From Dehalococcoidia bacterium (GTDB lineage: Bacteria > Chloroflexota > Dehalococcoidia > Lucifugimonadales > QGNO01), in NCBI GenBank assembly GCA_965197965.1, contig OZ240235.1, positions 1,317,820 through 1,381,819 on the forward strand: 64,000 bases of DNA. Direction: 5' to 3'. Position 1 is the stretch's first letter, and each line of letters begins with the position of its first letter. Below, in pieces: positions 7,139-9,079 of this stretch. The translations under genes were made by a program, and so were the position numbers. Below the pieces are notes generated by a model. The model saw only the letters and a program-made list of their open reading frames with translations. It was not told where the DNA came from and searched no databases.

Positions 7139-7215
7139 GCGCCCGTAGCTCAGCGGAACAGAGCACCGGTCTTCGGAACCGGGGGTCGTGGGTTCGAATC
7201 CCACCGGGCGTGCCA
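7139..7215 (+). tRNA. tRNA-Arg (anticodon TCG), CCA encoded
   Basis: Hand-folded. The acceptor is GCGCCCG/CGGGCGT (G1:U72) and the D-arm is GCTC-AGCGGAACA-GAGC. The anticodon arm is CCGGT-CTTCGGA-ACCGG (TCG), the T-arm is GTGGG-TTCGAAT-CCCAC, followed by G-CCA. Confidence 0.9.
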
Positions 7216-7220
7216 GGCTA
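7205..7220. repeat. Direct repeat copy 1 (attL-like): last 11 nt of tRNA-Arg plus 5 nt
   Basis: CGGGCGTGCCAGGCTA is identical to 9064-9079. Similarity continues imperfectly for about 6-10 nt (ATCCTG vs GCCCTG). Confidence 0.8.
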
Positions 7221-7327
7221 ATCCTGTTTGTATGCGGGGGCACGCGTCGCCAACCCTGCCTTACAGACCAACACTGGTCTATCCCCGCGTGTACGGTGGA
7301 TGGTGACCGAGCGTAGCCATTATAGCC

Positions 7328-7834
7328 TTAGATTCTCAGGCGACGGATGCACCGTTCGATGTCTTTCAACCCTTCATACACGTTTTGGAAATGACCTCTG
7401 ACTGCTGATGGCGCATCCACGGTTATGGTAGCGCCTTTAACGTAGGTGTGTGCCGCCCTGTTACGCTGGGCCTGGAGGGTTGAGAGACTAAACGTCATCT
7501 TGTCAAACTTGATCTGATCGAGCTTTGATTCCAATTCTTCGACCTTAATCAGGCCAAGAACCCTCATAAGCATATTCCGGAAGTTTGTGTCATAATCGAA
7601 GCCGTATGTCCTTCCAACTATAACGCTCTCCACATGTTTCCGATTGTTGGCAGTTGCCAAACGGCTCAAGGAACAGTCCCGTACAATGCTATCCATAGTT
7701 TCTTCTATCCAGCCGCACAACTCTATCAGGTACAACTTTGAATAATACAAAGGGTCTCTGGAGTTGCGGTGTCTACTGTTATAACGAGAATGCAGTTCAC
7801 GCAGGTTTCTGGCAATGGCAGTCTTGTTAACCAT
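7328..7834 (-). CDS. Small HEPN-like protein (Rx4H motif RNRAAH)
   Basis: 168-aa helical-looking ORF. RNRAAH is encoded at 7448-7465 in the C-terminal third. Its ATG overlaps the upstream DUF262 gene by 8 nt. Confidence 0.55.
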   Translation of the reverse strand: MVNKTAIARNLRELHSRYNSRHRNSRDPLYYSKLYLIELCGWIEETMDSIVRDCSLSRLATANNRKHVESVIVGRTYGFDYDTNFRNMLMRVLGLIKVEELESKLDQIKFDKMTFSLSTLQAQRNRAAHTYVKGATITVDAPSAVRGHFQNVYEGLKDIERCIRRLRI

Positions 7835-8942
7835 TTCCCTGGTCGGAGAATGCCCATTCAGCGGTTGACATCCGATCTAGTACTCTTTGCCTTCCGGAGA
7901 GGCCTTCCCTCAGCTTTGCCTCGGAGAGGGCCTCTGACCTCAGAAGTTGGTTATACATCTGGCGGACACGTTCACTGGGAAGCGTCTCCAGATGGTCTAG
8001 GTTCAGAGACACACCTACTAACGTTGCCTCCATGACTGTCAGAGATGTTCCGCGCCATTCACTAGGCTGTCCGTCTAGAATCGAGTCGTGAACAATGCTA
8101 ATTGTGCGGTTGAAGACCTCTCTATTGTCTTCCAAGAACTTTTCCCCCGTGCGACGGTGCTTCCCCATGTACCGGTTCAGAAACTTTACCAAGCTGCCTC
8201 TGTAATCGCGATAATTGTCGTGGAAGGCAAGGAGACGGAGTATCTGTTCCTGCCCAAAGTAACGGTTCCCTGCGCTTGAAGATCTTCCATTCAGCTTTAG
8301 CCAAGTTTGGTCGCCGTCAAGTTCATGCAGGAAGTCGTTAAAGGAACCCGAGTAGATGCAGTTCCGGATTTCTTGGTTGTTGAGTCTGACCGCGCCGGTA
8401 TTGAGACGGTGGAAAATGGTGAACAGATAATCCATGTGGCTAGATTTGGAGTAATCACAGCGAATAACTGTAATGGGTAAGGTTGCATTCTCTACACGAG
8501 TGTAGAATTTGTGCAAGGCTGGTTTGCTATTGCGGAAGCTGGGGACATACTGACCGGCAATCTTCTTGTCCACGTCATCAAGGCTGGAAAGACGCCAGTC
8601 ATCGCCGCGCAGAAAGCGGATGATACTCCACATACGCTGGAGTCCGTCTATAACCTGCCGTTTATCCGTCTTGTAATCCAAGCTAAAGCACATGCTCGGA
8701 ATCGGGAGCTGTTTAATCAGGGAATCTATGAAGCGAGTTTGTTTCTTGTCATCCCACACCACCTCTCTCTGAAAGTCCGGGCGAATATCAAGGGTACCTT
8801 CTTGGTACATTCGGAACAGATCTGCGCAAGACCTGAGTTCGTTGTACGCTATAAGGTCAGGTGGCGGAATATCTATGCTGTCGCTTTCTTGAAAGGTCAG
8901 TTCTTCGATGTTTTGAAGGCTTTTTTCAGTCATTGTTGCCAT
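7827..8942 (-). CDS. DUF262 (ParB/Srx-like, GmrSD N-terminal type) protein without a DUF1524 nuclease domain
   Basis: Motifs: PDFQREVVW, LPIPSMCF, VIDGLQRMWSI and FHRLNTGAVRLNNQEIRN. I prefer the start at 8942 (MATMTEKS, AGGAAG 6 nt upstream), because the track start at 9038 coincides with the -35 box of a consensus promoter. Confidence 0.75.
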   Translation of the reverse strand: MATMTEKSLQNIEELTFQESDSIDIPPPDLIAYNELRSCADLFRMYQEGTLDIRPDFQREVVWDDKKQTRFIDSLIKQLPIPSMCFSLDYKTDKRQVIDGLQRMWSIIRFLRGDDWRLSSLDDVDKKIAGQYVPSFRNSKPALHKFYTRVENATLPITVIRCDYSKSSHMDYLFTIFHRLNTGAVRLNNQEIRNCIYSGSFNDFLHELDGDQTWLKLNGRSSSAGNRYFGQEQILRLLAFHDNYRDYRGSLVKFLNRYMGKHRRTGEKFLEDNREVFNRTISIVHDSILDGQPSEWRGTSLTVMEATLVGVSLNLDHLETLPSERVRQMYNQLLRSEALSEAKLREGLSGRQRVLDRMSTAEWAFSDQGNG

Positions 8943-9009
8943 AGTTGCTTCCTGCGATTGAGAATTTGGCGTCAAGAGAGACACTGATCGCCAAACCCGG
9001 ATACAGTCC

Positions 9010-9038
9010 AGTATAGGTTTGGCATAAATTGGAGTCAA
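9010..9038 (-). promoter_or_regulatory. Sigma70-type promoter for the DUF262/HEPN-like cassette
   Basis: The minus strand reads TTGACT, a 17-nt spacer, then TATACT. It lies about 60 nt upstream of the ATG at 8942. Confidence 0.5.
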
Positions 9039-9063
9039 TTACAGTAGCTATCCCCCGTGTGTG

Positions 9064-9079
9064 CGGGCGTGCCAGGCTA
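9064..9079. repeat. Direct repeat copy 2 (attR-like): displaced copy of the tRNA-Arg 3' end
   Basis: CGGGCGTGCCAGGCTA, a 16/16 match to 7205-7220, lies 10 nt before the stop of the next core gene. Confidence 0.8.

Follow-up and report, generated by a model that had tools for sequence, protein, structure and literature searches.

A PD-T4-2 operon between copies of a tRNA-Arg 3' end at a variable site of marine Dehalococcoidia

A two-gene operon flanked by a tRNA-Arg repeat

We analysed a 64-kb stretch of a marine Dehalococcoidia genome (the window), in which a two-gene operon of the PD-T4-2 type lies downstream of an intact tRNA-Arg(TCG) gene and is enclosed by two direct copies of that gene's 3' end. 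The initial annotation of this DNA had described the unit as an integrase-less island bounded by a perfect 16-bp repeat. ARAGORN identified the tRNA, and the 16-mer CGGGCGTGCCAGGCTA was found exactly twice in the 64 kb, at 7205–7220 and 9064–9079, confirming the repeat as described. It is composed of the tRNA's last 11 nucleotides (nt), which cover the 3' acceptor strand, the discriminator base and the CCA, plus 5 nt, and continues imperfectly to 25 nt with 22/25 positions identical (7205–7229 versus 9064–9088). No third site appeared when both strands of the window were scanned with up to two mismatches; shuffled sequences gave a chance expectation of 0.06 matches, and 0/100 shuffles contained two or more. 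The two copies are named below as candidate left and right attachment (att) sites, attL and attR; L-numbers denote related genomes.

6015–7070, + strand: Ldh_2 family malate/L-lactate dehydrogenase, left flanking core gene outside the element (Pfam PF02615, E 1e-104); syntenic in all related loci
7139–7215, + strand: tRNA-Arg(TCG), intact, the putative integration target (ARAGORN)
7205–7229, + strand: attL, left repeat copy, exact over 16 bp at 7205–7220 and imperfect to 7229 (repeat alignment)
7221–7301, no strand: non-coding spacer from attL to the cassette body, partly present in L004 and absent in L019, with no significant fold (comparison, folding)
7302–9049, − strand: cassette body, with the promoter-like site and both genes; a stretch also found downstream of trpB in other Dehalococcoidia (blastn)
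7328–7834, − strand: PD-T4-2 gene B, 168 amino acids (aa), HEPN-like, with the Rx4H motif RNRAAH at residues 124–129 (PADLOC PD-T4-2_B, E 3e-57, model positions 1–166 of 168)
7827–8942, − strand: PD-T4-2 gene A, 371 aa, N-terminal DUF262/GmrSD_N with a DGLQR motif (Pfam PF03235, E 1.6e-24; PADLOC PD-T4-2_A, E 7e-150, model positions 4–362 of 363)
9010–9038, − strand: sigma-70-like promoter match upstream of gene A and inside the cassette (TTGACT, 17-nt spacer, TATACT; a consensus match only, 10/12 positions)
9064–9088, + strand: attR, displaced partial tRNA 3' end (9064–9079 exact), then the apparent original post-tRNA spacer (repeat alignment; L005 empty site)
9089–10231, − strand: amidohydrolase, right flanking core gene outside the element (Pfam PF01979 and PF07969)

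The interval between the att copies holds only two overlapping genes, both on the − strand (7827–8942 and 7328–7834), in line with the annotated gene content. Gene A has a GmrSD_N match alone (residues 42–198, Pfam) and no DUF1524 match, as in PD-T4-2, and differs in this from the GmrSD type IV enzymes, in which DUF262 is fused to a DUF1524 HNH domain; the HEPN-type gene B lies adjacent on the same strand, its start overlapped by the stop codon of gene A. The start of gene A at MATMTEKS is backed by homologues of 370–371 aa. For gene B, the Pfam match to HEPN_RiboL-PSP (E 0.001, 19.5 bits) falls below the curated cut-off of 28.4 bits. PD-T4-2 has been described as a DUF262 protein plus a HEPN protein, whose deletion from the native host E. 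coli ECOR65 greatly raised T4 plaquing (PMC9519451, PMC10952713), and its mechanism is itself uncharacterised (PMC12065111). The order of the two genes is the same as in ECOR65, DUF262 protein first and HEPN protein second, and both present proteins match the models over their full length; the host phylum, however, is distant, and activity against phage is here predicted. Judging from the families, the DUF262/ParB-like NTPase protein is probably a sensor and the HEPN-type protein a putative RNase effector. Comparison with the L004 and L019 orthologues gave dN/dS values of 0.15 for gene A and 0.44–0.46 for gene B. The cargo is a PD-T4-2 operon with its own promoter-like site and a predicted role in defence; its two genes are intact and under purifying selection, which gives that role indirect support. 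The GC content of 7221–9063 is 49.1% versus 58.0% in the rest of the window, which is above the 43–45% first annotated but still low (lowest 2% of same-size windows); GC at third codon positions is 0.56 in the cassette genes versus 0.65–0.73 in neighbouring genes. From the att copies to the nearest gene there are 107 nt and 121 nt of non-coding DNA in the window, and less on the tRNA side in L019.

In tRNA-integrated islands the target gene is restored, and the far end is recognised by a displaced fragment of it (PMC4383910). In the present locus the intact tRNA forms one boundary, and a displaced, partial copy of its 3' end in direct orientation forms the other. The right copy lies beside the stop codon (TCA on the + strand, 9089–9091) of the convergently oriented amidohydrolase, as annotated, although it ends 9 nt rather than 10 nt ahead of it. 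Empty tRNA-Arg sites had been envisaged in relatives, and one was found in L005, where the tRNA-CCA is followed by GGCTAGTCCTCTTTAT and then by the amidohydrolase stop codon, with 16 nt from tRNA to stop. The window sequence past the right copy, GGCTAGCCCTGCTTTCA, is the counterpart of this spacer, so that the junction appears to match what an attR should look like. An empty-site junction would read ...CACCGGGCGTGCCAGGCTAGCCCTGCTTTCACGCC, and a circular or tandem one ...CAGTAGCTATCCCCCGTGTGTGCGGGCGTGCCAGGCTAATCCTGTTTGTATGCGG. The geometry assigned by the initial annotation to tyrosine-integrase islands is present in its parts (intact tRNA, cargo and displaced partial end), whereas the tyrosine class of the enzyme is presumptive.

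Two further observations concern the cassette borders. The att spacer abuts or overlaps the amidohydrolase stop codon, and the C-terminus of this protein differs with the state of the site: it is 380 aa long and ends in ...KRWEA in the window, ends in ...KRWMP in L005, and the protein has 384 aa in other relatives (window 9089–9100 and the equivalents in L002, L004 and L005). In the window a motif TATCCCC(G)CGTGTRCGG borders the cassette body left and right (7280–7297 and 9050–9067), and a similar GGTCTACCCCCGCATGTGCGGG lies downstream of gene B in L021; the pair may be due to chance. A longer, possibly tRNA-like stretch left of attR (ATCCCCCGTGTGTG), taken together with the similar motif at 7280–7297 and in L021, was set aside as too weak.

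Small cassettes at the tRNA-Arg site of related genomes

Scanning species-representative genomes for the amidohydrolase yielded nine loci with 91–94% aa identity, all in marine Dehalococcoidia metagenome-assembled genomes; eight of them reach the tRNA side, while the L003 contig stops just past the amidohydrolase gene. With four further loci from protein look-ups the relatives number 13, and the whole set, window included, 14 genomes. An exact-sequence look-up with the window amidohydrolase and gene A returned no record. The tRNA-Arg is the same in the relatives save for one anticodon-stem base, and amidohydrolase orthologues (90–94% aa identity) flank the site in 12/13 of them, the L019 contig ending before this gene. 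The gap between tRNA-Arg and amidohydrolase ranges from 16 nt to 4.5 kb across the relatives, which hold zero to three small cassettes at the same tRNA site, and tandem cassettes are parted by an extra core copy. Read from the tRNA outward, up to the amidohydrolase gene, the contents are as follows (IS, insertion sequence).

L005: empty; CCA, GGCTAGTCCTCTTTAT, stop codon
L002 and L006: HigA/HigB
L008: S-adenosylmethionine (SAM) methyltransferase
L009: module Y (DUF433 plus DUF5615/PIN-like), att copy, orphan HigA
L007: NYN gene, att copy, HigBA
L026: 0.8-kb segment without a called gene, att copy, HigBA
L027: small open reading frames (ORFs), NYN gene, IS (rve transposase)
Window: PD-T4-2
L028: PDC-M50-like pair with a TIR protein, att copy, module Y, att copy
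L004: PD-T4-2, att copy, orphan HigA
L019: PD-T4-2, att copy, module Y, att copy, then contig end
L001: module Y, att copy, HigA, DUF5677 gene, CfrBI-like restriction-modification system

The tRNA-Arg(TCG) site is a hotspot throughout a marine, SAR202-like genus of Dehalococcoidia. The rve-family IS of L027 (9166–10101) sits inside it, directly adjoining the amidohydrolase gene.

The segment common to most att copies in the 14 genomes is GCGTGCCAG, which most internal core copies retain, some (L001/L009 and L007) being more degenerate; the core can also be written as GCGTGCCAGRCTAG. A 17-mer (CCA plus downstream spacer) allowed up to three mismatches was found at the tRNA and at cassette junctions only, in one orientation, over 235 kb surveyed, L026–L028 included. 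In relatives lacking PD-T4-2 cargo the 16-mer is single, at the tRNA alone; rather than being dispersed, the outcome that the initial annotation had named as contrary to its reading, it occurs solely at the tRNA and at cassette junctions.

PD-T4-2 lies beside the tRNA in three genomes, the window, L004 and L019, each time with a flanking repeat that is perfect over 16 bp in the window and over 15 bp in L004 and 89% identical over 28 nt in L019; the same two genes at this site without a repeat, which had been named as contrary evidence, were thus not encountered in either relative. The right end of the cassette, ...CAGTAGCT plus the partial tRNA end, is common to the three. Beyond attR the window continues with the empty-site spacer and stop codon, L004 with an attL-type junction of the HigA module, and L019 with an attL-type junction of module Y. 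The same cassette right end followed by different sequence beyond attR is predicted by repeated recombination at one core. A chance repeat or an assembly artefact could draw on the metagenomic origin of the relatives and on the ease with which a 16-mer recurs in very large data, as six apparently fortuitous matches in viral contigs illustrate. It is effectively ruled out by the shuffles, with their 0.06 expected matches, by the L005 empty site and by the repeats at PD-T4-2 copies in relatives; the architecture recurs in three independent assemblies, one of which (L004) is a complete chromosome.

A sister cassette has spread recently. Module Y, a DUF433/DUF5615 toxin-antitoxin pair of ~920 bp, is 98.2–99.3% identical over 919 nt among L001, L009, L019 and L028, whereas Ldh_2 plus amidohydrolase in the same four genomes are 91.5–94.8% identical (Fisher p 2e-6 to 4e-16). 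Both borders of the high-identity block fall exactly at att copies. To its left lies the tRNA, the PD-T4-2 cassette or the TIR cassette, and to its right the amidohydrolase gene or HigA. With differing flanks, and with shared DNA limited to the ~25-bp core, such a block is hard to make by recombination in homologous flanks. Module Y provides the strongest support for the view that att-bounded, integrase-less cassettes at the tRNA site serve as units of horizontal transfer.

The PD-T4-2 cassette, for its part, seems old. Its nucleotide identity between the window and L019 is 91.9%, and between the window and L004 87.4%, against about 90.5% and about 88–90% for the core. Synonymous divergence (dS) of gene A from the window is 0.30 for L019 and 0.32 for L004, compared with 0.29 and 0.39 for Ldh_2. 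In the left-flank tree the three carriers belong to three different clades, each with non-carrier sisters. Since cassette divergence tracks core divergence, the PD-T4-2 cassette has either been in residence for a long time or travelled within the genus alone, and its patchy spread then needs several precise losses or gains at att copies.

This record bears on an alternative that we consider somewhat unlikely, in which a larger integrase island inserted long ago and then lost its integrase by deletion, so that PD-T4-2 now lies, immobile and vertically inherited, between fossil att sites and is absent from relatives through deletions between short direct repeats. The equality of gene A and core dS and the match of the cassette tree to the core tree are as such a history predicts; decay of this kind is also the origin usually proposed for cis-mobilizable elements (CIMEs; PMC5704250), and Dehalococcoides ssrA islands lacking an integration module have been read likewise (PMC3146451). 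Across the 14 genomes and at least eight cassette types, however, no integrase gene or fragment was found, and the short non-coding margins (107 nt and 121 nt) would require the deletion to have been near-exact each time. Module Y, equally integrase-less, has recently spread att-to-att. Moreover, attR is still 16/16, whereas an unconstrained 16-mer at a dS of ~0.15 per lineage would have accumulated ~2 changes by our own estimate; the perfect copy hints weakly at constraint or later recombination. At position +2 after CCA the two window copies have G (GGCT) and the two L004 copies A (GACT). This difference was weighed as a sign of homogenisation and dropped, as the variant is also present in att copies belonging to other cassettes (L008, L026 and L028) and is not cleanly readable.

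Copies at trpB and the search for a recombinase

Copies of the PD-T4-2 cassette also occur away from the tRNA. The cassette body (7302–9049) matched sequence downstream of trpB in L020 (90% nucleotide identity) and L021 (76%); both blastn matches begin at window position 9049, the L021 match ends at 7302 and the L020 match reaches only 7655, its contig end. L023 encodes at trpB a protein A with 90% aa identity, and there a DDE_Tnp_1 IS between the two genes splits the operon; a protein A homologue with 69% aa identity lies at a third locus, in L024. Neither direct repeats nor an adjoining tRNA were found at the trpB-site and L024 copies; the att-flanked state is specific to the tRNA site. In a close relative, L025, the trpB site is occupied instead by a pair of HD/dGTPase-like and DarG-like genes. 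As to the genus of the trpB-site genomes, there were no genes shared with the window, and TrpB clusters were uninformative. L020 and L021 are ~93% identical in the flanks but only ~76% in the cassette, and near the start of gene A the L020 allele changes from resembling L021 to resembling the window, marking it as an inter-allele recombinant; alleles therefore also flow by homologous recombination.

These findings raise the question of whether the tRNA site works in the same way, with cassettes swapped through the conserved flanking genes and the repeats being incidental scars of unrelated ancient events. Replacement of PD-T4-2 by the HD/dGTPase-like and DarG-like pair at trpB, a second hotspot with no repeats, speaks for it, as do the L020 breakpoint inside the cassette and the several other small indels between core genes that distinguish the window from its relatives. 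At the tRNA site, by contrast, repeats accompany every PD-T4-2 copy and separate tandem cassettes, always in one orientation, and the 98–99% tract of module Y ends at att copies between differing flanks, with the ~25-bp cores as the sole homology. We regard homologous exchange as an improbable account of this site.

Searches for the enzyme returned no candidate at the site. Neither tyrosine (HxxRH) nor serine (YxRxSxxxQ) recombinase motifs were present in the window or in any hotspot of the 14 genomes; tblastn of all hotspot segments with a XerC/D-like protein gave insignificant matches only and no fragment; and the precomputed Pfam lists of the related hotspots contained no recombinase. The element thus differs from a tRNA-integrated island with its own integrase, no recombinase domain or motif being found in 7205–9079 or in the 13 related hotspots. 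Gene remnants of ICEs (integrative and conjugative elements) or IMEs (integrative and mobilizable elements) were likewise absent from the 14 genomes, an absence with which an ancient origin is still compatible. The initial annotation had suggested looking for the same att core next to an integrase; no such pair was found at the hotspots of the 14 genomes, nor any attP-bearing element in viral-contig scans. The 16-mer had six matches in viral contigs, none with a tRNA, and in L018, the only contig whose ORFs were read, no integrase lay near the match; we rejected these as attP sites because their number is close to chance for the size of the collection, by our estimate. Viral scans with the tRNA 3' end, with a degenerate core and with protein A gave zero matches each, and a single metagenome scan with the tRNA 3' end retrieved one unrelated 2-kb contig only.

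The motif scans of the window and all loci did find one recombinase, outside the hotspot: a XerC/D-like tyrosine recombinase, the product of a conserved core gene. In relatives this gene lies towards tRNA-His, ~7–8 kb from the tRNA-Arg, and so past the left edge of the window (L005 18494–19402; also in L002, L006, L007 and L008). It is probably a housekeeping dimer resolvase, and nothing ties it to the tRNA-Arg site.

Folding of the cassette ends revealed no convincing hairpin or attC-like structure (right-end z −0.4 to +0.7). The element therefore departs from integron cassettes, which have an attC and an IntI/attI platform: no integrase lies near the site and the ends have no significant structure. 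It departs also from integrative mobile elements exploiting Xer (IMEX), which use a dif site and XerC/D, in that the target is a tRNA 3' end, and from Tycheposons, which are tRNA-proximal with an integrase and usually a replication module, in that it contains two predicted defence genes only.

Proposed mobilisation in trans, known systems and other variable sites

On balance we favour, with moderate confidence, a CIME-like, non-autonomous cassette that entered by site-specific recombination, its recombinase acting in trans. The cassette, as a circle or in some other form with an att site, would recombine with the tRNA 3' end, the crossover falling in or near GCGTGCCAG; attL would keep the tRNA whole, and attR would be left with a displaced copy of the tRNA's last 11 nt and the original spacer. 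As the cassette encodes no recombinase, the enzyme would have to come in trans, whether encoded at another place in the genome or brought by a second mobile element. Precise loss would be possible through these att copies as well. Of the two origins offered by the initial annotation, a reduced island and a cassette mobilised in trans, the latter fits better, on indirect evidence.

Several points weigh against this proposal. The trans step is central to the mechanism, and no recombinase was identified in the hotspots searched; the viral-contig scans and the one metagenome scan turned up neither an attP-bearing element nor an integrase-bearing island at tRNA-Arg. The PD-T4-2 cassette itself shows no sign of recent movement, its dS equalling that of core genes and its copies following the core tree, one per clade, a pattern that one ancient insertion and later losses can also explain. 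Routes independent of att exist, as the repeat-free trpB-site copies and the alleles exchanged by homologous recombination demonstrate. Finally, every related genome compared is a metagenome-derived assembly.

Cassettes of integrons are small units without an integrase that stand in tandem at one recombination site, each with its own site. The present cassettes resemble them in size, tandem arrangement and lack of an integrase, but there is no IntI by the site, no attC-like fold, and the site is a tRNA 3' end; they also appear to carry their own expression signals, as the promoter-like match in the PD-T4-2 cassette suggests. A bolder version of the trans model, which we rate as doubtful, would make the tRNA-Arg site an integron-like capture platform without a linked integrase. 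Self-expressed minicassettes for defence and toxin-antitoxin functions, each bearing its copy of the tRNA-end core, would be inserted there, stacked and cut out again by an enzyme encoded away from the site, whether a dedicated orphan recombinase, that of a transient element or, conceivably, one of the host, and would circulate between species as att-to-att units. If so, these non-autonomous 'att-cassettes' would form a class not described before and a path along which genes flow in streamlined marine Chloroflexota.

Among described elements, the CIMEs of streptococcal ICE/IME systems sit at a target gene's 3' end between attL and attR, have no genes for integration or transfer and stand in tandem (accretion) with elements sharing their att sites (PMC5704250). 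The present element conforms to this operational definition (attL plus attR, no integration or transfer genes), and the tandem, att-separated arrays at the site, together with the recent att-to-att transfer of module Y, are indirect evidence for mobilisation by an integrase of matching specificity. CIMEs, however, are defined as decayed ICEs or IMEs and have been observed moving in cis with an adjacent ICE, whereas no ICE, IME or integrase was found here in the 14 genomes, the units are single operons of 0.7–2 kb, and module Y appears to have moved alone from att to att. Within the same bacterial class, the Dehalococcoides ssrA islands stand in tandem downstream of a small RNA gene, with a 20-bp direct repeat of the gene's 3' end bounding each, and some without an integration module were suggested to be cis-mobilizable (PMC3146451). 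They share the tandem order and 3'-end repeat with the present site, but their target is a tmRNA, they measure ~10 kb or more, and most have a serine recombinase (DsiB) by attL, a module and motif not found here. Islander-type tRNA/tmRNA islands likewise have a regenerated target and a displaced fragment but encode their own tyrosine integrase. The I55-type intY islands have defence cargo and no transfer genes (PMC12595487); they are similar in cargo and unlike in carrying an integrase. In Prochlorococcus, Tycheposons are tRNA-adjoining islands with partial tRNA copies and defence cargo, in which incoming elements push older ones inward and most material is inactive (bioRxiv 10.1101/2020.12.28.424599). 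The streamlined marine host, the partial tRNA copies beside a tRNA and the defence cargo are common to both, although Tycheposons are defined by an integrase, usually with a replication module. From CIMEs, the ssrA islands and those of Prochlorococcus the site differs by its very small single-operon units, by the lack of an integrase in 14 genomes and by one cassette apparently transferred alone.

The locus illustrates the way in which a streamlined marine lineage with few recognisable mobile elements in the regions examined maintains a variable complement of anti-phage and toxin-antitoxin genes, in tiny self-contained cassettes gathered at one tRNA end that each bear a recombination-site copy but lack a recombinase. 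If these are mobilised in trans, integrase-based island finders would miss such a mobile pool, and the recombinase would be a useful target. PD-T4-2, whose characterisation has so far been confined to E. coli, is hereby extended to Chloroflexota, where its genes have long been maintained under purifying selection.

Other variable sites were seen in the window. A low-GC (46–51%) islet at 32061–34780 on the − strand encodes a DUF262 protein of 378 aa (DGQQR motif; PADLOC NsnA-like, 6e-33), a 240-aa protein with a weak AbiGi match and a type II DNA methyltransferase of 321 aa; neither a recombinase nor a flanking direct repeat was found with it. Just upstream of tRNA-His (4476–4552) lies a window-specific, low-GC insertion of ~1.1 kb (3240–4380), without flanking direct repeats, where L004–L007 have ~95 bp instead; it holds a 179-aa ORF (3794–4333, − strand) with no Pfam or PADLOC match. 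Further small indel sites between core genes were located at 10260–10339, 12540–12938 and 16692–17080, the first of which spans 78 bp in the window versus ~1.8 kb in L002, L003 and L006.

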